Of a stretch of DNA of 45,790 nucleotides, positions 24,109 to 36,292 are shown in pieces; position 1 is the first letter of the stretch; each line of letters starts with the position of its first letter. Position numbers and translations under genes: made by a program. This stretch comes from an uncultured Verrucomicrobiota bacterium. Lineage in GTDB: Bacteria > Verrucomicrobiota > Kiritimatiellia > CAIVKH01. The notes beneath the pieces were generated by a model. The model did not search any database and had not been told where the DNA came from. It saw nothing but the letters and a program-made list of their open reading frames with translations. The stretch covers positions 1 through 45,790 of the forward strand of contig CAYTVN010000002.1 in assembly GCA_964441655.1 (NCBI GenBank). Direction: 5' to 3'.

Positions 24109-25050
24109 GTGAACGAAGAAGGCCACTATTCAGATTGCAGCACCGCCGCACCACGGGTTTCGGTGGTGGTGGGGACCTACAATTGTGCCGCTTTTCTGCC
24201 CGGTCTATGGGCCAGTTTGGCCGCGCAGACCTTCCGTGATTTCGAAGTCGTAGTGGTGGACGATGCGTCAACCGACGGAGCAACCCTGGCCGCCCTGGAG
24301 GAACGGGGGCCGCGCGTCCGCTTGATCCGGCGGACCCAAAACTCCGGGACCTGCGAATTACCCCGCTATCAGGGGGTCCAGGCCGCGCGCGCGCCGTTGT
24401 GCGCATTTCTGGACGCCGACGATCGCTGGGACCCGACTTTTCTGGAGCGTTGTGTGTCTTATCTGGATGCGCATGCGGAGGCCGCGCTGGTGCATACGTC
24501 CGTCCGGGTGATCGATGGCGAGGATCGCGTGCAGCGTATCCGCCATGAAGGTGTGCTGGAAACCATTCACAATTGGCCGCGGGCCTTGCTGGAGCACTGC
24601 TATATTACCATCAGCGCGGTGGTGGCACGGCGCGATCTCTGGTTGTCCGCCCTGACGGAGGAGGAGATCAACGATTTTGGGATGGATCAGGATTTCTTTC
24701 TGACCCTGGCCCGCCGTCATCCCATCGGATATCTCCCCGAAGTGCTGGCCTCCTACCGTCGTTCCGAGACCAGCGTCAGCGTGAAAAAGTGGAAGCGTGT
24801 TCCGCGCAATGTGCACACGCTGGAACGCATCTATCGCAAGGGACTGTGGGAAGGCGTGGTTTCGAGGCGGGAGATGGTGGCGATCCTGACTGCGGCGTAT
24901 CTGGAGGATGCACAGCATTGGCGCGGGATGGGCGAACCCGGCAAGGCCCTGTGGTTTATCCGGCAGGGTTTGCTGCATAACCTGTTCGCGCTGTCCCTTT
25001 GGAAGGAAGGCGCGAAGGCGCTGCTCCAGTTTCGGAAGGTAGCTTATTGA
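24109..25050 (+). CDS. glycosyltransferase family 2
   Basis: GTG start. 'VSVVVGTYNCAAFLPGLWASLAAQTFRDFEVVVVDDASTDG', 'FLDADDRW'. Confidence 0.85.
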   Translation: MNEEGHYSDCSTAAPRVSVVVGTYNCAAFLPGLWASLAAQTFRDFEVVVVDDASTDGATLAALEERGPRVRLIRRTQNSGTCELPRYQGVQAARAPLCAFLDADDRWDPTFLERCVSYLDAHAEAALVHTSVRVIDGEDRVQRIRHEGVLETIHNWPRALLEHCYITISAVVARRDLWLSALTEEEINDFGMDQDFFLTLARRHPIGYLPEVLASYRRSETSVSVKKWKRVPRNVHTLERIYRKGLWEGVVSRREMVAILTAAYLEDAQHWRGMGEPGKALWFIRQGLLHNLFALSLWKEGAKALLQFRKVAY

Positions 25051-26117
25051 CCGCGCGCTTGAATCGCCGCCCACCGCCGCTTGACGATGGCGGGGATTTG
25101 CCGGGAGAAACGGTGGATCCGGTGCAGTTGAAGGCGGTCGGCGAGGGTGACGGTATCCGGCAGATTGGCCGCGCGAATGTCTTCAATCAAGCTTGAGCGG
25201 TCCAACCACTCCTGCTGTACAAAAAATGTGTAATGAAGCGCAATTTGCCGACAATCAAGCACATGGTTTTGCCGGTTATCAGCCACCCACTGGCACCAGC
25301 CCGGTTCATCGTTCCACGGAATACCACCCATCTTCTGCCAGTGACGGTAGTCGTACCCAATGCATCCGATGGAGAAGGGGATGCTGAAAAGATGATAGGC
25401 GATGGGCGATGGGCGAGGACTCAATGGTCGGGTCGTGCCCACGTTGTCCGGTGTCTTTCGTCTATCGTCCAATGTCCCCAGTCTCTCTCGCTGCTGTTCG
25501 TTCGCCTCGGCTAAATTCAAGAATTTGCGGGTGGCCCATTCAGCCACGTAGGGGCTGTGCCAGGTGAGGCAGTCCCGCTGGGGCTGGGGGACGCATCCAA
25601 AGAGGCGTTGATGTTCCTCCAACAGTTCGGGATAAAATTGATGACACAGGATGTGCAAGCCGTAGGCGTTGTTGGGGAGCAGGGGGGTGATCAGTGCGAG
25701 ATCATCCCGGTCCCGGTTGGCCTCGTAGGCTTCCCACATCATACGGGCCCATCCCGGCGGCACAAACACGTCCTCGTCGGTCTTGGTGTAGAAACAGCCG
25801 GGGTACTTCTCGATACAGCGATTCTGCATGTCGGAGATGCCTTTGGGGCGGGTTCCGTCGCCGATGATCTTGTCGCATGCCACGGAGGGGTGTCCCTCGA
25901 TCCATGCGTCAATGAAGCGCATGTGGCTGGCCGTGACATCGTTGAGCAGGAACACCACCTTGTCAAAGACGGCGAAGCTGCCCCCTCGTTCGTGGAGGAG
26001 GAGATTAATGTCGACGCAATCTTCCCGATCTTTGGTCAGAACCATCAGAATTTTATTCACGCGCCAGACCATAGCCAAGATTCGCGCGTGATTCAATGCC
26101 ATGCCGGCGGTGTTCAT
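25044..26117 (-). CDS. hypothetical GT-A-like protein (DxD 'KTDEDVF'); start codon uncertain
   Basis: 357-aa minus-strand ORF whose 3' end overlaps the preceding + gene by 7 nt. 'KILMVLTKDRED' resembles a beta1 strand, and there is a 'TDED' motif. Alternative in-frame ATGs at 26102 and 26072. Confidence 0.65.
   Translation of the reverse strand: MNTAGMALNHARILAMVWRVNKILMVLTKDREDCVDINLLLHERGGSFAVFDKVVFLLNDVTASHMRFIDAWIEGHPSVACDKIIGDGTRPKGISDMQNRCIEKYPGCFYTKTDEDVFVPPGWARMMWEAYEANRDRDDLALITPLLPNNAYGLHILCHQFYPELLEEHQRLFGCVPQPQRDCLTWHSPYVAEWATRKFLNLAEANEQQRERLGTLDDRRKTPDNVGTTRPLSPRPSPIAYHLFSIPFSIGCIGYDYRHWQKMGGIPWNDEPGWCQWVADNRQNHVLDCRQIALHYTFFVQQEWLDRSSLIEDIRAANLPDTVTLADRLQLHRIHRFSRQIPAIVKRRWAAIQARGQ
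25391..25418. repeat. tandem heptamer array GATGATA GGCGATG GGCGATG GGCGAGG inside the minus-strand CDS
   Basis: Read directly. On the coding (minus) strand it reads CCTCGCC CATCGCC CATCGCC TATCATC and encodes ...SPRPSPIAYH... Confidence 0.55.
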
Positions 26118-27677: not shown

Positions 27678-28970
27678 GTGAAAACGAATTCCAACTCCAC
27701 GGTTATTCTGGGCGCCGGCCTGACCGGCCTGGGTGCGGCCACCCAACTTTCCGGCGCCGTGATCTACGAAGCCAAGAACCATCCGGGTGGCCATGTGTAT
27801 TCACATCGGCAGTGTGGTTACTCGTTCGACGAAGGGGCCCATATCTGTCATGCCAAGGATCCGGTATGGCTGGAGAAGCTGCATCAGAATGCCGGCCGGG
27901 TTGTCCGCATTTCGCAAAGTCGGGTGGCCAATTACTGGCATGGGCACTGGGTGACCTATCCGGTGCAAAATCATTTGCGTGATTTGCCCGTGGAACATCG
28001 CATCCGTGCCCTCACGGAAATAGTAGCCGCCCAGTCGGTCCCGGAGCGGACGCCAGGGAACTACGAGGAATGGTGCCGCTATCAGTATGGGACGTTCTTA
28101 ACCGAGCGATTCTACAAGGAATATACCGATAAATATTGGCGCACCTCCATGGCTGACATGGACACGGATTGGCTGGCCGGTCGCCTGTTGCCGTCCCAGG
28201 TGGACCGTATTGTGCATGGCGCCATCGCTCCGCTGGATGAAAAGCAGTCCGTCTTTTCCACCTTTCATTATCCGCTGGAGGGAGGCTTCTTCGCCTTTTT
28301 TCAAAAGTTCTACCAGACGGTGCCGGTCCAGTTGGGCATGAAGGTGGTCGGTATTGACCCCGACCTGCGCCGACTGCGGTTCGCCAATGGCGAACAAGCG
28401 TCGTATGGTCAACTGATCAGCACCATCCCGCTGAACGAGTTGATCCGTGCGCTGCCGGAGGTGCCCGATGCCATACGCCGGGATGCCGAATCGTTGCGGC
28501 ACACTCAACTGATCGGGATCAACCTGGTGGTCCGCAAGCCCAACCTGGTGCCTCATCACTGGTTCTATATTTACGATCCGGAAGTGGAGGTGTCCCGCGT
28601 CAAAGTCCTAAGTAATGTCATACCGGACGGTCTGCCGCCTGGCGTTACCGTGCTTCAGACGGAGATATTCCGGCGGGATGACGAAGTGTTTGATGTGGAA
28701 GCGCTGAAGCGGGGGGCGGTGGAGGACCTGGGCCGATTGCTGGGATTTGACCCGGCGAGCGATGTGGTCGCCGTGGATCACGTAGTGGTGTCACACGCCT
28801 ATACCATCCCGACCCTGGGGCGGCAGGCGGCGGTGGACCGTATCGTGGGATGGCTTGAAAGCAAGGGCATCGAGACGGCTGGATTGTATGGCCGATGGAA
28901 ATACATGTGGTCTGATCAGGCCTATCAAGCCGGAATTGAAGCCGCGGGAAGAATCAACGCCCGGTGTTAA
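27678..28970 (+). CDS. FAD/NAD(P)-binding flavoenzyme related to UDP-galactopyranose mutase / amine-oxidase superfamily
   Basis: GTG start. Dinucleotide-binding 'VILGAGLTGLGAA'; 'HPGGH'; 'YPVQNHL'; 'NYEEW'; C-terminal 'GLYGRWKYMWSDQAYQAG'. Paralogous to 30070..31515. Confidence 0.85.
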   Translation: MKTNSNSTVILGAGLTGLGAATQLSGAVIYEAKNHPGGHVYSHRQCGYSFDEGAHICHAKDPVWLEKLHQNAGRVVRISQSRVANYWHGHWVTYPVQNHLRDLPVEHRIRALTEIVAAQSVPERTPGNYEEWCRYQYGTFLTERFYKEYTDKYWRTSMADMDTDWLAGRLLPSQVDRIVHGAIAPLDEKQSVFSTFHYPLEGGFFAFFQKFYQTVPVQLGMKVVGIDPDLRRLRFANGEQASYGQLISTIPLNELIRALPEVPDAIRRDAESLRHTQLIGINLVVRKPNLVPHHWFYIYDPEVEVSRVKVLSNVIPDGLPPGVTVLQTEIFRRDDEVFDVEALKRGAVEDLGRLLGFDPASDVVAVDHVVVSHAYTIPTLGRQAAVDRIVGWLESKGIETAGLYGRWKYMWSDQAYQAGIEAAGRINARC

Positions 28971-29001
28971 CGCCCATCCATGGGAATGTCGCTCTGACGC
29001 A

Positions 29002-30018
29002 ATGAAATCCGAAGCAGTAACGGCTCCTCCAGCATCAACTAGGCCGGCAAGGATGAACTCTATTGATGTGGCGAAGGGCATCGGCATTCTGCTGGTGGTG
29101 ATCGGACATACGGATGCCCGGCCGTGGGTGGGAAACCTGATTTATCAATTTCACATGCCGTTCTTCTTCATCCTCAGCGGGTATCTGTTCCGGCCGACCA
29201 CGCTACGGGATTTTCTTCAAAGAAAAACCGTTCGCTACCTGTTGCCCTACTTTTCGTATTTGGTCCTGTTTGCACTGGCCGCCCCCAAGCCCGCCATGGA
29301 GACCATTCTCGGGGCTCAAGGCGCCCAACATCCCGTGCTGTCGTTGCTGATAGGCGGTGTGCACTTGGAAACGTATGCCACACCTTTCTGGTTCCCAACC
29401 GCACTTTACATCACGGCTCTTTTGGCCACAGGGGTTGCCCTGGTGAAACGCCGGCATTTTGCCTCGGGCGCGGCCATCGTCTGTCTGTTGGGCGCGCTGA
29501 TAAACCAGCGCCACCACACCATCGCCTGGCCGTTCGCGGCGAATGTGGCCTTGATGGGCTATGTTTTCTTTTTCTGCGGACAGTGGTTACGAGAGCATCT
29601 CGATTCCAAGCCGCTGCTGTGGTGGGCGGGCGTCCTTACTGCGGCATCGGCAGGCGCCATTCTTTTTACAGATTTACCGTTCTCTTTTGACATGAAACAT
29701 GCCTATTACGGGATATTCCCCATCAGCCTGGTCATGGCTCTCTCCATGTCCGTGATGTTGTTGGCGCTCTCGCAAGTTGCTTATGCGCGCGCGCCTGTGT
29801 TAGCTCATGCCCTGATCTATGTGGGCCAGGCTTCGATGACCATTATGTATCTTCATCAGTTCTTCCAACTGAGATTGGGCTACACGCGCTTTCACGACTG
29901 GCACCTGCTGCGCATCGCGGCCGGGGTTTTGATCCCCTTGATCTTGCATGCAGGGCTGATGCGGGTGGGTGTGTTGCGGGTATTCTTCTGCGGGTTGCCC
30001 AAGCCGGTGCGGGCATAG
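29002..30018 (+). CDS. acyltransferase family 3 (OafA/YrhL-like) integral membrane O-acyltransferase
   Basis: 'IDVAKGIGILLVVIGH...FHMPFFFILSGYLF' plus about 9 further TM helices. The start is either the ATG at 29002 or the ATG at 29053. The ORF-track start at 28855 overlaps the upstream gene. Confidence 0.85.
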   Translation: MKSEAVTAPPASTRPARMNSIDVAKGIGILLVVIGHTDARPWVGNLIYQFHMPFFFILSGYLFRPTTLRDFLQRKTVRYLLPYFSYLVLFALAAPKPAMETILGAQGAQHPVLSLLIGGVHLETYATPFWFPTALYITALLATGVALVKRRHFASGAAIVCLLGALINQRHHTIAWPFAANVALMGYVFFFCGQWLREHLDSKPLLWWAGVLTAASAGAILFTDLPFSFDMKHAYYGIFPISLVMALSMSVMLLALSQVAYARAPVLAHALIYVGQASMTIMYLHQFFQLRLGYTRFHDWHLLRIAAGVLIPLILHAGLMRVGVLRVFFCGLPKPVRA

Positions 30019-30069: not shown

Positions 30070-31515
30070 ATGAATAAAACAGAATATTTGATAATTGGCG
30101 CGGGTCCGACCGGGCTGGGGGCAGCGACGCGTTTGCAGGAAAAAGGGAAGGACTGGCTCCTGCTGGAAGCCGAACAGCATTTTGGCGGATTGGCGTCATC
30201 CTTCAAAGATCCGCAGGGATTTACCTGGGATATGGGCGGGCACGTCCAGTTTTCCCACTACGAAACCTTCGACCGCTACATGGACCAGGCCTTGGGCCCG
30301 GAGGGATGGAATACTCACCAGCGGGAATCCTGGGTCTGGATCAAGAAGCGCTTCGTACCTTATCCCTTCCAAAACAATCTTCACCGTCTCGACCCCGAGG
30401 ACCGGTGGGCTTGCATGGAGGGACTATTGGAGGCGTGGCAGCGGGAGCAGGCCAGAAGTCAGACTTCAGATCTCAGATCTCAGACCGCAGACCTCAAACC
30501 TCAGGCCTCGACCAGAAACTTTGAAGAATGGATGCTCGATACCTTTGGCCCGGGCATCACCGAATTGTTCATGTATCCCTATAACTTCAAAGTGTGGGCC
30601 TATCCACCGTCTCAGATGGACGCGCACTGGATCGGTGAGCGCGTATCCGTGCCGGGCCTGGGGGGCGTGATCAAATCCATCTGCCTGAACCGAGACGAAG
30701 TTTCCTGGGGCCCCAACAAGGTCTTCCGTTTTCCCAAGCGGGGTGGCACGGGGGCGGTGTGGGAAGCCATCGGCCGGGGGCTTCCCGCGGATCGGGTTCA
30801 ATTGGGCCGGGCCGTGACCCATATCGATCCCGTTGCCCGTACGGTGAAAACCCACGACGGCCAAACATGGTCGTATCAACATCTGATCTCCACCATAGCG
30901 CTGAATCACTTGATCGGGATGGCACCGGGTGTGGTTCCTCCGGAACACGCCGGCTTGCTCCGCTATTCATCCACCAACGTCGTTGGTGTCGGCTTGAACG
31001 GCGCGGTGCCCGAGTCCCTCAAAACCAAGTGCTGGATGTATTTCCCGGATGCCAACAGCCCGTACTACCGGGTGACCGTGTTCACCAACTACAGCCAGGA
31101 GAATGCGGCCAAACCCGGCCAGCAGTGGTCCCTCATGACGGAAACGGCCGAAAGCCCCCTGAAGCCTGTCCGTCCGGAAAGCTTGGTGGAAGAAACACTG
31201 CTGGCTTTGGAAGAAGACCGGTTGATACCCGACCGCTCCGCCATCTGCTCGGTGGTACATAAGCGTCTGGAGCAGGGCTATCCCACGCCATTCTTGGGCC
31301 GGGATGCCGTGGTGGATCCAATGCTGCGCGCTTTTGAAGCAAAGAGCATTTATAGCCGAGGGCGGTTCGGGGCCTGGAAATACGAGGTGGCCAACCAGGA
31401 TCATTCTTTTGCCCAGGGCTACGAATGTGTGGAGCGACTGGTTGCGGGGGGCGGATCTGAATGCGAGCCCACGCTGTTTACGCCTGATCTGGTGAACAGC
31501 CGGAGAAATCCCTGA
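30070..31515 (+). CDS. glf: UDP-galactopyranose mutase, resembling the eukaryotic-type enzymes (from memory of fungal/kinetoplastid UGM sequences)
   Basis: 'LIIGAGPTGLGAA', 'GGLASS..GFTWDMGGHVQFSHY', 'YPFQNN', 'YNFKVWA', 'FRFPKRGGTG', 'GYPTP', 'SRGRFGAWKYEVANQDHSF'. Contains an in-frame heptamer-repeat insertion. Confidence 0.8.
   Translation: MNKTEYLIIGAGPTGLGAATRLQEKGKDWLLLEAEQHFGGLASSFKDPQGFTWDMGGHVQFSHYETFDRYMDQALGPEGWNTHQRESWVWIKKRFVPYPFQNNLHRLDPEDRWACMEGLLEAWQREQARSQTSDLRSQTADLKPQASTRNFEEWMLDTFGPGITELFMYPYNFKVWAYPPSQMDAHWIGERVSVPGLGGVIKSICLNRDEVSWGPNKVFRFPKRGGTGAVWEAIGRGLPADRVQLGRAVTHIDPVARTVKTHDGQTWSYQHLISTIALNHLIGMAPGVVPPEHAGLLRYSSTNVVGVGLNGAVPESLKTKCWMYFPDANSPYYRVTVFTNYSQENAAKPGQQWSLMTETAESPLKPVRPESLVEETLLALEEDRLIPDRSAICSVVHKRLEQGYPTPFLGRDAVVDPMLRAFEAKSIYSRGRFGAWKYEVANQDHSFAQGYECVERLVAGGGSECEPTLFTPDLVNSRRNP
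30452..30514. repeat. nine tandem heptamers (CCAGAAG TCAGACT TCAGATC TCAGATC TCAGACC GCAGACC TCAAACC TCAGGCC TCGACCA), 63 nt, in frame inside the UGM gene
   Basis: Read directly. It encodes RSQTSDLRSQTADLKPQAST. 9 x 7 = 63 nt preserves the reading frame. Confidence 0.8.
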
Positions 31516-32692: not shown

Positions 32693-33967
32693 ATGATGTC
32701 CCGACCACTACGCATCCTGTTTGTCAACCGCATGGCCACCCTGGTCCGGGGTGGGGGGGAGACATTTGATCTGGAGATTTCCGCCAGTCTGGAGAAATTA
32801 GGCTGCCAGATAAGCTATCTTACCGGAGCCCCCGTGTGGGGCGCGCCGCCGTTGCCGCTGGCACATCCCCGGTCCCATCTGATTCGATCCCCGTATCTGC
32901 CCTGGTTCCCGTGGGACAAGGTAAAGGCCGGTTGGCGCGTCCGGGTGTGGGAATTCAGCCAGTTTGAGCGCAAGGCCGCGCGGTGGATCATGGCCCACGC
33001 CAACGAGTATGATGTGATCCAAATCTGCGAGCTGCCGTATCTTGTTTCCCTGCTTAAATCGGCGGACACTCCTTGTCCGACCCCTGTTGTCCTTCGTCTT
33101 ACCGCGCCTAATGCCCACGATCCATGGGGCGGCGTGAAGCTGGCGGATGCCGTTATCGCCAGCGGAACGTCCATTGAAAAAGTGCGGAAGAAGGTGCGGC
33201 CGTCCGTGTTTGATGTGCCCAACGGAGTAAATTTGGAGCGGTTTAACCAGCCTGAAGCCGCAAGACTGACGACGGATTTTCGGGCTCGCCACAACATTCC
33301 GGCCTCCGCCCCGGTAATGCTCTATGTCGCCCGCTTTCAGGCCTTCAAAAATCACAATCTTCTGATGGATGCCTTTCTGCGCGTGGTCCAGGACGCACCC
33401 GACGTGCGGTTGGTTCTGGCTGGGAGTGGACCGCTCAAGAAGGAGATCGAGGCCAGATGTCAGACGTCAGAGCTGCGGGATCGCGTGCTTTTTCTGGGCG
33501 AGGTTCCCTTTTCCGATCTGCCCAAGGTATATGCCGCGGCTGACATCAAAGTTATTTCCAGCGAGTACGAGTCTTTTTGCTTCGCCGCCATCGAGGCCAT
33601 GGCGGCGGGTCTGCCGGTGGTCACCACGGATTGTGGATGGGTCCCGAAACTGATTGGCGATACGCTACCGCCCATCGAAAAACAGTGGGCCCACGGGGGT
33701 GATGCGCCGGGGCGATTCGCGGTCGAGCAGGATGGGAAACGCATCCGCACGGCGCCGGGCGGCCTGGTGGTAAGCAGGGTGGAGGCAGACTCGCTGGCCG
33801 CAGCCATGAAGGTGATGCTGCAAGATGCAACTCTGCGGGCCGAAAACGGCGCGTGGAATCGCAAAAAAGCTGTGCGTGAGCACGGCTGGGAAAGTAGCGC
33901 CCAAAAATTGCTGGGCGTGTACCGGGGGCTGGTATCTGATGTCGGAGGTCGGAGATCAGAGGTCTGA
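32693..33967 (+). CDS. glycosyltransferase family 4
   Basis: 'RILFVNRMATLVRGGGETF', 'LYVARFQAFKNHNLLMDAF', 'SSEYESFCFAAIEAMAAGLPVVTTD'. The last ~10 codons and the stop lie inside a heptamer array. Confidence 0.9.
   Translation: MMSRPLRILFVNRMATLVRGGGETFDLEISASLEKLGCQISYLTGAPVWGAPPLPLAHPRSHLIRSPYLPWFPWDKVKAGWRVRVWEFSQFERKAARWIMAHANEYDVIQICELPYLVSLLKSADTPCPTPVVLRLTAPNAHDPWGGVKLADAVIASGTSIEKVRKKVRPSVFDVPNGVNLERFNQPEAARLTTDFRARHNIPASAPVMLYVARFQAFKNHNLLMDAFLRVVQDAPDVRLVLAGSGPLKKEIEARCQTSELRDRVLFLGEVPFSDLPKVYAAADIKVISSEYESFCFAAIEAMAAGLPVVTTDCGWVPKLIGDTLPPIEKQWAHGGDAPGRFAVEQDGKRIRTAPGGLVVSRVEADSLAAAMKVMLQDATLRAENGAWNRKKAVREHGWESSAQKLLGVYRGLVSDVGGRRSEV
33453..33473. repeat. three tandem heptamers CCAGATG TCAGACG TCAGAGC inside the GT4 CDS
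   Basis: Read directly. Same TCAGAnn family. Encodes ...RCQTSEL... Confidence 0.45.
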
Positions 33968-33972
33968 AGGCA
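33938..33972. repeat. heptamer array GATGTCG GAGGTCG GAGATCA GAGGTCT GAAGGCA (left arm; inverted orientation of the CnGACCT unit)
   Basis: Read directly. It contains the GT4 stop codon (33965-33967). 'GAGGTCTGAAG' is the perfect complement of 'CTTCAGACCTC' at 34367-34377. Confidence 0.8.
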
Positions 33973-33981
33973 AGAGCTGGC

Positions 33982-34401
33982 ATGCAGATTAAATCAGCGA
34001 AGGAACTGGACGTATATAAACTGGCGTATTCCTTGAGTATGCACATATATGATCTTTCCAAGGCATGGCCGAAAGATGAGCAGTACGCTTTGACCGATCA
34101 ATGTCGAAGATCCAGTCGTGCGGTCTGCGCCGGTCTACGTGAAGCATGGGCGAAACGACGGTACGAAGCTCACTTCGTCAATAAGCTGACAACGTGCGAC
34201 GGCGAGAACAGCGAAACGGACACATGGTTGGATTATGCCTTGGATTGCGGTTACATCTCCGCTGATGTTCATCGTGATCTCGTCGGAACGATTGCCCATA
34301 TCGGAGCTATGTTGGGGAAAATGATGCATAACCCAAAGCCTTTCTTATCGGTAAGCCGACCCCCCACTTCAGACCTCCGACCTCAAGCCTCTGACCTCTG
34401 A
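33982..34401 (+). CDS. four-helix-bundle protein (23S rRNA intervening-sequence protein / S23p family; Avd-like fold)
   Basis: 'ELDVYKLAYSLSMHIYDLSKAWPKDEQYALTDQCRRSSRAVCAGLREAW...ENSETDTWLDYALDCGYIS' matches my memory of the family pattern (L-VY-A...IY...FP..E...L..Q.RR...S). The body is visibly AT-richer than its neighbours (by eye, not computed). The C-terminal 'RPPTSDLRPQASDL' is encoded by the heptamer array. Confidence 0.85.
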   Translation: MQIKSAKELDVYKLAYSLSMHIYDLSKAWPKDEQYALTDQCRRSSRAVCAGLREAWAKRRYEAHFVNKLTTCDGENSETDTWLDYALDCGYISADVHRDLVGTIAHIGAMLGKMMHNPKPFLSVSRPPTSDLRPQASDL

Positions 34402-34404
34402 CCT
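34356..34404. repeat. heptamer array CCGACCC CCCACTT CAGACCT CCGACCT CAAGCCT CTGACCT CTGACCT (right arm)
   Basis: Read directly. It contains the stop of the four-helix-bundle ORF (34399-34401) and ends 6 nt before the asnB-2 ATG. Confidence 0.8.
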
Positions 34405-34410
34405 TCAATC

Positions 34411-36276
34411 ATGTGTGGCATAGCCGGATTCATCGGTACGGATTCCCGCCTAGACGAGGCTCTCCTCGTGCGCATGCAGCGCGCGCAGAAGCATCGGGGG
34501 CCGGACGACACGGGTCTCATGTTTCAGATCCGGGCCTCGGCGGATGCAAACCGTCCGGCGGTTCGTGTCGGCATGGCGCATAACCGGCTGAGTGTGCTGG
34601 ATCTTTCCGGGGCGGGGCATCAGCCCATGCGCACCACCTCCGGCGAGCACTGGATTTGTTACAACGGAGAATTTTATAATTCGCCCGACTATCGTGCGGC
34701 CATGAAGGGGCGGGGGTTAGAATTCCGGTCCACCTCCGACACTGAAGTGCTGCTGAACCTATGTCGCGACCTGGGCGTGGAGAAGACGCTGCCAAACGTC
34801 AATGGAATGTTTGCTTTCAGCTATTTTGACGGGACGCGCGAGGAGCTATTCCTCTGCCGCGACCGAGCCGGTCAGAAACCGCTTTTCTACATGATTCTCC
34901 CCGATGGTTCGCTGGTTTATGCTTCGGAAATACCAGCCCTTTTGGCCTCTGGACTGGTCCCGGAACGGGACATCGACGTTCAGGCTTTTGATCATTATTG
35001 GACCATGGGCTACACCGCGGGGGAACGCACATTCTACCGTTCCATACGCCGACTGCGGCCCGGAGCCATGGCCTGCTGGCGTCAGGGCAAAACGGAGATC
35101 AAAACGTATTGGCAACTCACCTTTGATCCGCTGGATGACGCGGGCAAGGATCTCAAGCGTCATGTGGATGAGTTCATCCCGCTGTTGGAAGACGCGGTCC
35201 GGTTGCGTCTGCTGTCCGATGTGCCGGTGGGCATCTGCCTGTCCGGGGGCATTGATTCGTCCCTGATGGCGGTCATGATTTCCCGGCTGCGCGCCGATGT
35301 GCCCGCGTACACCATTGCCTTTGAGGGATCGCCCGCGGACGAAGCCCAGCAGGCGGGTGCCATTGCCCGCCACCTCGGAATTGAGCACCGCGTACTGAAT
35401 GTATCGGGCGACCTGGCCCGCGAGTTCCCCACCATCGCTTCCTGGTATGGCGAGCCGTTTGGCGATGCCTCTTCCATTCCCATGTACTTTTTGTCCCGCA
35501 TGATCCGGGAAAGCGCCACCGTGGCCCTGACCGGCGATGGCGGGGATGAACTTTTCGGCGGCTATCACCATTATCGGGAAGGATTACACATCTGGGGGGC
35601 GGGCCATCTTGACCGGGCCGGTGGGCCGCGCGGGTTCAAGGCGGCGATTCGTGCCGTGTTGTTGCGGAGGGCCGGGATCGCCACTGGTTACGAACGCATG
35701 CAGCGTCATGCCAATGAGAAACTAAAACGTGCCCTCTACAGCACGACTGCGCTGGAGCTGATTGATCCGGAGGAAACGGCCGAGCAGCGCCGGCAATGGC
35801 TGGCCCCGGTTCGCGATCCTCTGGCCGCCATGCAGAATTGTGATTTCCATGTGTACATGACCGACGACGTGCATACCAAGGTGGACCGCATGAGCATGGC
35901 GCATGCATTGGAGTGCCGGAGCCCGTTTATGGATTACCGGATTCTGGAGTGGGCGGCCCGCCTGCCCACGCGGGTCAAAGTGTCCGGGTCGGGAGCGGGC
36001 AAACTGGTCTTGCGCGATTTGCTTTCTCGCTTCATGCCTCGGGAATTGTATGATCGTCCCAAGCAAGGGTTTACGCCGCCCTGGGAGCGCTGGTGCACGG
36101 GTGAATTCCGTCGGCAGGTGCGTGCGGACTGGCTTGGTTTGAACGACGCGATGGTAAACCCCGGTGCCGTTGACATACTGCTGCCGGAGCAAGGGCCGGT
36201 CTCACCTGTTCTGTCCTGGATGGCGTATTCCTATGTGCAGTGGAAGAAGTCACAACTTGTAACCTGCAACCTGTAA
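34411..36276 (+). CDS. asnB: asparagine synthase (glutamine-hydrolysing)-like amidotransferase, copy 2
   Basis: 'MCGIAGF', 'RLSVLDL..GHQP', 'CYNGEFYN', PP-loop 'SGGIDSS'. The stop codon lies inside a TGTAACY heptamer array. Confidence 0.95.
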   Translation: MCGIAGFIGTDSRLDEALLVRMQRAQKHRGPDDTGLMFQIRASADANRPAVRVGMAHNRLSVLDLSGAGHQPMRTTSGEHWICYNGEFYNSPDYRAAMKGRGLEFRSTSDTEVLLNLCRDLGVEKTLPNVNGMFAFSYFDGTREELFLCRDRAGQKPLFYMILPDGSLVYASEIPALLASGLVPERDIDVQAFDHYWTMGYTAGERTFYRSIRRLRPGAMACWRQGKTEIKTYWQLTFDPLDDAGKDLKRHVDEFIPLLEDAVRLRLLSDVPVGICLSGGIDSSLMAVMISRLRADVPAYTIAFEGSPADEAQQAGAIARHLGIEHRVLNVSGDLAREFPTIASWYGEPFGDASSIPMYFLSRMIRESATVALTGDGGDELFGGYHHYREGLHIWGAGHLDRAGGPRGFKAAIRAVLLRRAGIATGYERMQRHANEKLKRALYSTTALELIDPEETAEQRRQWLAPVRDPLAAMQNCDFHVYMTDDVHTKVDRMSMAHALECRSPFMDYRILEWAARLPTRVKVSGSGAGKLVLRDLLSRFMPRELYDRPKQGFTPPWERWCTGEFRRQVRADWLGLNDAMVNPGAVDILLPEQGPVSPVLSWMAYSYVQWKKSQLVTCNL

Positions 36277-36285
36277 CTTGTAACG
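36251..36285. repeat. heptamer array CACAACT TGTAACC TGCAACC TGTAACT TGTAACG (a distinct unit family, TGYAACY)
   Basis: Read directly. It encodes the asnB-2 C-terminus (...QLVTCNL*), contains its TAA stop, and ends 7 nt before the next ATG. Confidence 0.75.
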
Positions 36286-36292
36286 TTCCTGT

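Follow-up and report, generated by a model that had tools for sequence, protein, structure and literature searches.

A translated heptamer repeat array in a surface loop of a eukaryote-type UDP-galactopyranose mutase from an uncultured Verrucomicrobiota bacterium

Simple sequence repeat (SSR) contingency genes, such as the opa genes of Neisseria with CTCTT repeats and the Haemophilus genes with tetranucleotide repeats, carry tracts that are long, nearly perfect and polymorphic both between and within strains; heptamer-dependent phase variation is reported for H. influenzae (PMC12721329). Short tandemly repeated repetitive (STRR) arrays were reportedly described by Vioque in 1997 (Nucleic Acids Res 25:3471) inside the gene for RNase P RNA of heterocyst-forming cyanobacteria. 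An excess of heptameric repeats in bacteria is known and unexplained; heptameric SSRs are over-represented, with about four units preferred, as typified by GGGAATC in Xanthomonas and GGGGA(T/C)T in Nostoc (Rehm et al. 2015, PMC4692102), and most of the arrays published are located between genes, with too few of them in coding sequence (PMC4692102). The Coxiella burnetii S23p intervening sequence (IVS) contains 2–3 tandem GACAGAT heptamers beside its open reading frame (ORF), the number of which varies among strains (PMC4990558), and the first of these repeats is where an RNase III site is located (PMC4990558). The present analysis concerns a stretch of 45,790 nt (the window) from an uncultured Verrucomicrobiota bacterium (assembly GCA_964441655.1, contig CAYTVN010000002.1, positions 1–45,790, forward strand), in which an array of 7-nt units lies in frame within a gene for UDP-galactopyranose mutase (UGM). 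Here the array most likely has no function of its own and is a passenger of the gene, not an efficient ON/OFF switch.

The array and the features discussed with it are listed in Table 1, where homologous loci bear L numbers. Set in register with the orthologous arrays, it reads GGCC, then the heptamers AGAAGTC, AGACTTC, AGATCTC, AGATCTC, AGACCGC, AGACCTC, AAACCTC and AGGCCTC, and then GACCAGA, while the wider segment 30442–30519 reads CGGGAGCAGGCC, the eight heptamers from AGAAGTC to AGGCCTC, and GACCAGAAAC. Tandem Repeats Finder (TRF) delimits 30459–30513, with a period of 7, 8.0 copies, 79% matches and the consensus TCAGACC. The period-7 self-match at the array is 29/35, while elsewhere in the 45.8-kb window all periods from 4 to 12 stay at or below 23/35, and the array is thus beyond chance. 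It is in frame in the ORF 30070–31515, where it is translated as RSQTSDLRSQTADLKPQAST with R as the next residue; it is free of stop codons in all three forward frames and contains stops in all three reverse frames. The longest perfect run, TCAGATCTCAGATCTCAGA, covers 2.7 units. An earlier reading of this DNA from the sequence alone (the sequence-only reading) had described nine tandem TCAGAnn heptamers (63 nt) translated in frame within the UGM, a count that holds if the two degenerate end units are included. An RNA hairpin formed by the window's own array was considered and rejected, as the array folds no better than shuffled sequences (z = +0.9 and −1.05), and there is no Rfam match anywhere in the window. 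The two complementary arms and long stem of the homologous arrays in L074, L158, L001 and L075 are not present in the window array. The units at 30468–30481 each consist of a palindromic hexamer plus one base (AGATCT + C), as do those of L159:6391–6420 (CAATTG + C); an array of such units is nearly self-complementary though one-sided, and may provide a route by which an arm changes its orientation.

Table 1. Features of the window and heptamer arrays in the corresponding loop of related mutases (positions refer to the window; identities are to the window mutase)
Feature or locus	Position	Strand	Protein identity	Description	Evidence
Distant UGM-like paralogue	27678..28970	+		430 aa; array-free loop of 29 residues	BLASTP, PDB search
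Host gene	30070..31515	+		Eukaryote-type UGM, 481 aa	PDB matches, AlphaFold2 model, Foldseek
Polymorphic mosaic patch	30442..30545	+		Array and ~30 nt flanking it on the right	Replaced as a block in L071
Heptamer array	30454..30516	+		8 recognisable units and a degenerate ninth	TRF, self-match scan, register alignment with orthologues
4HB (23S-rRNA-IVS-protein/S23p) cassette	33935..34408	+		Four-helix-bundle (4HB) cassette with inverted heptamer arms	PF05635, TIGR02436, TRF
AACCTGT × 4.4 array	36254..36286	+		Runs across the stop codon of an asnB-like gene (34411–36276) into the intergenic gap	TRF
L072			90%	Best genome GCA_963852765.1, 481 aa; same 78-nt length, units diverged (AGAAGTC... / CCTCCGA...)	
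L074			81%	Same 78-nt variable segment; five AGAAGTC-type then three inverted TGACCTC-type units	
L158			81%	Element as in L074 and the window; 11 units, i.e. +21 nt (+3 units)	
L001			80%	TCAGGTG × 4.6 and CCTGAAA × 4.4; hairpin, z = −3.7	
L159			80%	Perfect (ATTGCCA) × 4.3, encoding a 10-residue loop	
L077, L078			75%, 80%	CAACATC and AATCCAA arrays	
L075			79%	168-nt GATACGR / ATCCCGY hairpin, −65.7 kcal/mol	
L008			66% (tblastn)	ATCGAAA × 4.3	

The product of the host gene is a eukaryote-type UGM, as judged by its full-length sequence and fold, and is predicted to convert UDP-galactopyranose (UDP-Galp) to UDP-galactofuranose (UDP-Galf). In PDB searches it matches the UGM of Trypanosoma cruzi (4dsg) over its whole length (residues 6–479; E = 1e-132) and that of Aspergillus fumigatus (E = 1e-125), while its AlphaFold2 model (pTM 0.85) is related by Foldseek to the A. 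fumigatus and T. cruzi enzymes at TM-scores of 0.82–0.86 and 40–44% identity. The generic amine-oxidase/PRK07208 fold is the only thing that NCBIfam and Pfam recognise in it. The GGH loop and the motifs WIGERV, YYRVT, GYPTP and RFGAWKYEVxNQDHS are invariant in a 42-sequence alignment and align to the UGMs in the PDB; from the A. fumigatus structures, we take these to be the flavin and substrate residues of the active site. Homologues of the eukaryote type (40–51% identity, loci L019–L070) are spread over numerous phyla of bacteria, among them Gemmatimonadota, Bdellovibrionota, Acidobacteriota, Rokubacteria, Bacteroidota and Myxococcota, and usually carry in public records only the label 'FAD-dependent oxidoreductase' or 'protoporphyrinogen oxidase'.

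The best reading places the array between two helices, in a surface loop that is disordered and permissive. The AlphaFold2 model has a helix at residues 109–133, then the array-coded residues 135–147 with pLDDT below 50, and then a helix at residues 151–159, so that on this model the array encodes a disordered connector together with the terminal part of one helix; the homologue alignment and AlphaFold mapping, which the sequence-only reading had proposed as a check, accordingly present the insert as an expansion of this loop. From YPFQNN to NFEEW the window mutase has 47 residues and the paralogue 29, which bears out the insertion of ~18 residues claimed at the outset, and from YPFQxN to the phenylalanine of NF(E/D)xW there are 26–31 residues (mode 30) in ~40 homologues from many phyla outside the clade. 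The window loop thus extends ~17 residues beyond the 30-residue bacterial baseline. Array-free homologues with an equally long loop had been named as a finding that would speak against the insertion; array-free lineages have a short loop, and the loops of distant homologues, both from the Planctomycetota–Verrucomicrobiota–Chlamydiota (PVC) group and from outside it, are short and non-repetitive. The loop length given for the paralogue in the sequence-only reading stands; the two proteins share only 28% identity (E = 2e-36, BLASTP), and the paralogue is not a second copy of the same enzyme. The best PDB matches of the paralogue are likewise eukaryote-type UGMs (E = 1e-37), and its sequence marks it as a putative distant UGM-like protein. 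It reads FDEGAH where the mutase reads WDMGGH.

The same loop is occupied by heptamer arrays in nearly all of twelve close homologues whose DNA was read. The closest homologues (72–99% identity) have 461–514 aa, with the size difference concentrated in the array loop. At least seven unit families of arrays are found in this loop across the clade, often as inverted two-arm hairpins, and all UGM orthologues examined are in frame. The hairpins of L001, L074, L075 and L158 have z between −3.7 and −5.8, that of L074 folding at −31.8 kcal/mol (z = −4.9). The window array lies in register with those of L074 and L158 and retains only the first left-arm unit, which, together with its lack of folding, makes it resemble a two-armed module in which the left arm was turned into the type of the right. 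In L076 (502–678), a 57-residue loop is encoded by a GACCACA array and two copies of a ~48-nt repeat (GCACCC.GCTTCGCCAAGAGGCTGCGCCG.GGCAAGCCAA), and the loop thus also accepts repeats other than heptamers.

The loop alleles are mosaic. Over 2.7 kb, the window and L071 (SRR17331998) share ~99.3% DNA identity except at 30442–30545, where L071 has a 36-nt ATTGGCAATG...CATTGCCAAT mini-hairpin in place of the array, with sharp boundaries; in the 25 nt after the replaced array, L071 differs from the window by six substitutions that it shares with L072 and L159. Across 30430–30650, the DNA identity of the window with L158 is 0.96/0.89/0.93/0.93/0.87 against a gene-wide value of 0.756, and that with L072 is 0.71/0.67 at the loop against 0.858 gene-wide. 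In this patch the window is closest to a lineage of only 76% overall identity. The loop allele classes (TCAGAnn, CAACATC/AATCCAA, TCAGGTG/CCTGAAA, ATTGCCA, RDLRPET-type and GATACGA) are scattered over the gene tree. Homologue pairs that are 88–93% identical over the remaining protein have unrelated loops, and loop length ranges from 9 to 59 residues among relatives that are 85–93% identical over the remaining protein. The block replacement in L071, the patch identities with L158 and L072 and the scattered allele classes indicate that loop patches are exchanged by recombination.

The unit family of the mutase array recurs 3.4 kb downstream in the inverted arms of the 4HB cassette, the ORF of which (33982–34401) matches PF05635 (E = 1.3e-26) and TIGR02436. 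The left arm (~33938–33970; TRF array 33941–33964) is of the GTCGGAG type and the right arm (~34356–34404; TRF array 34356–34404) of the TCCGACC/TCAGACC type. The mutase array shares 77% ungapped identity over 39 nt with the right arm and 79% over 33 nt with the reverse complement of the left arm, while ~3000 random 39-mers from the window reach at most 72%, none attaining the array-to-arm identity; the claim that the array has the unit of the 4HB arms, in the sense of the right arm and complementary to the left, is thereby confirmed. The ~470-nt cassette is wholly absent from the syntenic glycosyltransferase (GT)/asnB junction in L072 and L001, which makes it a clean insertion that brought its own arms, and in L160 it is present with the same arm lengths as in the window. 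The TC[CA]GACC unit family also occurs in L072, L074, L017 and L075 and is thus a common repeat family, so that direct descent of the mutase array from the 4HB cassette is not proven. A PF05635 ORF enclosed by arms is found only in the separate cassette, the mutase array containing no ORF. The upstream GT ORF (32693–33967) terminates within the left arm of the cassette, and the right arm encodes the last 22 residues of the 4HB ORF.

Heptamer repeats are a general feature of this lineage. The window and its close relatives, 172 kb in all, contain 47 tandem repeats with a TRF score of at least 40, of which 38 have a period of 7, 14 or 21, while the periods in 1.23 Mb from distant taxa are broadly mixed. 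The arrays of the PVC lineage are located in intergenic gaps, in the flanks of 4HB genes (L001 and the window) and in frame in enzymes, the latter including other real enzymes such as an MBOAT protein (L075:3743–5179), a GT4 (L005:17021–18283), and a GT4 that carries six arrays and a GT9 that carries four (L008:17109–18734 and L008:2979–4637, respectively). Several of the enzyme-borne arrays in L008, L075 and L005 stand as adjacent pairs. In all fetched loci, 17 of the 25 arrays that are at least 95% pure have 4.3–4.7 copies (30–33 nt), at a detection threshold of 2.9 copies, and a preferred size of this kind would not be expected of random slippage. As the units are not G-rich, the published G-quadruplex rationale neither explains the array size nor applies here. 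Within the 4HB cassette, the left arm, which is non-coding, has one GAAGACT unit (7 nt) more in L003 than in L001 and L002 (L001:4827–4853 vs L003:4820–4853), while the mutase proteins of L001, L002 and L003 are identical and their mutase arrays unchanged; this clean 7-nt indel shows directly that the arrays do slip by single units. That each genome might use one unit type throughout was considered and rejected, as L001 has TCAGGTG/CCTGAAA in the mutase and GAAGACT/TCTTCAG around the 4HB gene, and 5 kb of L075 contain more than six unit types. In-frame heptamer arrays in enzymes were not found described in the searchable literature on heptamer arrays with Verrucomicrobia or the 4HB family.

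The mutase array is probably a passenger heptamer SSR, i.e. a degenerate two-arm module in a permissive loop, which selection would keep in frame and free of stops and recombination would reshuffle. Its ancestor may have been a two-armed module of the kind and unit family of the 4HB arms, in which (AGAAGTC)n formed the left arm and (TGACCTC/AGACCTC)n, inverted, the right. Replication slippage would alter the unit count, purifying selection on the mutase would retain only in-frame, stop-free versions, and homologous recombination would carry whole loop alleles between strains and lineages. The outcome of such selection in the window would be an array that is nearly one-sided, reads TCAGA in place of the TCTGA of a perfect complement, and forms no hairpin. 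Were the left arm perfectly complemented, by (GACTTCT)n, an in-frame TGA would recur at every third unit; TCAGA stands in the coding right arms where the non-coding cassette arm has TCTGA, and we infer that selection for translatability lies behind this avoidance of stop codons, as well as behind the conserved frame. Neutrality of the array and its descent from a cassette-like module would complete this account.

Slipped-strand phase variation, as proposed in the sequence-only reading, would have the array gain or lose units in replication, with changes other than multiples of three truncating the mutase and toggling the incorporation of galactofuranose into the polysaccharide. Its frameshift logic is sound, as the 7-nt unit is not a multiple of 3 and, in silico, a change of ±1 or ±2 units within the coding sequence introduces stops at codons 147–205 and abolishes the product, while ±3 units keep the frame. 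The gene also lies in a 45-kb surface-polysaccharide cluster, a typical setting for contingency genes, single-unit slips occur in the lineage (L003 vs L001, in a non-coding arm), and the unit number varies among orthologues (+3 units in L158). A role as a slipped-strand switch is nevertheless unlikely, as the tract reaches a purity of only 79% and contains 2.7 perfect units in place of a long, near-perfect run, and as out-of-frame polymorphism in unit number is not seen among close consensus assemblies. The 90%-identity protein cluster of the mutase comprises seven sequences on separate contigs, five of which (the window, P0001, P0124, P0125 and P0126) are 98–100% identical with equal loop length, while the sixth is the 90% identical, 481-aa orthologue of L072 and the seventh (P0123) has a different loop. 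The length is thus equal in five assemblies of the same genotype, and equally so in the 90%- and 81%-identical orthologues of L072 and L074. The only length difference in a homologous mutase array, that of L158, is a multiple of three units, and the DNA of L160 and L161, which stem from independent runs and are 99.0–99.4% identical, shows the same array length with one substitution only. A search of a 5.8-billion-protein collection with the N-terminal 148 residues yields no truncated near-identical ORFs (no match above 80% identity), the short matches on long contigs in that collection being from distant species with ordinary loops and frameshifts elsewhere, and there are 0 frameshifted orthologues in ~150 loci. 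A frame-blind allele scan of metagenome DNA with a degenerate pattern for WAC[VM]EGLLEAWQ gives no match, and a protein-seeded metagenome scan finds one close relative (L078) among 80 loci, too few for a population test. Such arrays are also lodged in many other genes and at intergenic sites, which further argues against specificity for this locus. The constant lengths, the +3 units of L158 and the real slippage in the 4HB arm of L003 fit slippage that is filtered by selection on the reading frame. Targeted diversification, in which the nearby Avd-like 4HB protein would be part of a diversity-generating retroelement (DGR), is extremely improbable: the loop is hypervariable and the 4HB protein weakly matches bAvd and DGR-Avd (E = 5.8e-6 and 7e-8, both below the curated cut-offs), but the 36 ORFs annotated across the window include neither a reverse transcriptase nor a transposase, no template repeat lies among them, the variation consists of unit turnover and indels instead of adenine-specific substitutions, and L072 lacks the 4HB cassette yet has an equally divergent loop. 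The DGR reading was therefore rejected.

Selection at the protein level would make the 17 extra disordered residues the adaptive element (an oligomer contact, a partner site or an aid to solubility), with the repeats as mere raw material. Most of the clade retains an expanded loop, and the 47-residue length occurs in four lineages of differing sequence (the window, L072, L074 and L001). Such an adaptation is still hardly likely, since the loops of close relatives are unrelated and range from 9 to 59 residues at 85–93% identity elsewhere, a strain of the same species has a short loop, the loop is predicted to be disordered, and diversifying selection on the surface of a cytoplasmic enzyme would be implausible. 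It is likewise quite improbable that the array acts at the RNA level, with an inverted-arm hairpin serving as an RNase III or structure-dependent mRNA site that tunes expression of the mutase or its operon. The strong hairpins of the four orthologues (L001, L074, L075 and L158) and the Coxiella S23p IVS, whose RNase III 5′ cut falls on its first heptamer repeat (PMC4990558), would be in line with such a role; the window array, however, lacks a second arm, folds no better than shuffles and has no Rfam match, a cut within the coding sequence would destroy the message, and the continued translatability of the arrays argues for read-through. Several points weigh against the passenger reading itself. 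Nearly every member of the clade has some array in exactly this loop, which could reflect targeting or selection, even the shortest clade allele being an array, (ATTGCCA)4, and the same loop allele classes recur in distant branches. Strong hairpins are kept within the coding sequence of several orthologues, which hints at a possible role at the RNA level. The length comparisons rest on consensus assemblies, which may hide minority out-of-frame variants within populations, and the link to the 4HB cassette is one of unit similarity, where a shared unit need not mean direct descent. A further account, possible but doubtful, is that the arrays did not arise by random slippage but are size-defined modules (~4.5 units, ~32 nt per arm, often in inverted pairs) and non-autonomous relatives of the S23p/4HB 'IVS' cassette, capable of moving into coding DNA and of remaining there as loops that are translated. 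In that case the UGM loop would be favoured for their landing or conversion, with alleles spreading between lineages, and polysaccharide operons might be under RNase III or structure-dependent control.

The 36 annotated ORFs of the window form a surface-polysaccharide cluster of 45 kb, which encodes GT4 and GT2 glycosyltransferases, MBOAT acyltransferases, methyltransferases, asparagine-synthase-like amidotransferases and a DegT aminotransferase. The paralogue adjoins an MBOAT and an acyltransferase gene, an arrangement kept in L072, L073 and L161. In the gene table of L160, the mutase of which is 99% identical, the acyltransferase (PF01757) gene is absent between the paralogue and the mutase (L160:2606–2772 vs window 28855–30018), which suggests strain-level variation in the gene content of the cluster. 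The AACCTGT array has kept its position and length in L072, at ~86% DNA identity, the value of the UGM gene, and indicates that arrays of other units occur in the gene cluster of the mutase. A short GATGGGC × 3 array is present at 25388–25418, inside an unannotated minus-strand ORF (25044–26117).

Taken singly, the array is a minor curiosity, and its context carries more weight. A barely studied PVC lineage tolerates heptamer-repeat modules within conserved enzymes, and one surface loop of a cytoplasmic mutase is a hypervariable, recombining hot spot for such arrays; the lineage-wide lodging of size-defined heptamer modules in enzymes is the more interesting finding. It provides a natural system for the origin of heptameric repeats, their preference for about four units and their relation to the S23p/IVS elements. 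For annotation, it also cautions that a non-triplet repeat within a glycan gene need not be a phase-variation switch.

Compared with the SSR contingency genes, the mutase shares a unit not divisible by 3, a place in surface-glycan biosynthesis and a product that a frameshift would truncate, but its tract is 79% pure, is of constant length in the close genomes seen and belongs to a genome-wide class of repeats. Its likeness to the S23p IVS lies in the cassette 33935–34408, where a PF05635 ORF stands between complementary heptamer arms, and in the mutase array having the unit and sense of the right arm of that cassette, while the array differs in lacking an ORF and a complementary partner arm and in being located in a protein-coding gene instead of rRNA. 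With the described heptameric SSRs and STRRs, the arrays share 7-nt tandem units at many loci in excess over other periods, length and sequence differences between related genomes (+3 units in L158 and the 7-nt indel in L003), and a modal number of ~4–4.7 units, close to the four-unit preference reported (PMC4692102). They differ in being located in UGM, MBOAT, GT4 and GT9 coding sequence instead of mostly in intergenic regions, in having at least seven unit families in one loop across the clade, in their units not being G-rich, and in their host, which is an uncultured PVC-group bacterium and not a cyanobacterium or a xanthomonad. Like the STRR arrays that reportedly occupy the RNase P RNA gene, the mutase array lies in a permissive part of an essential, conserved gene whose function is kept; that host gene specifies an RNA, however, whereas the array in the mutase must keep the reading frame, avoid stop codons and become a disordered loop of the protein.

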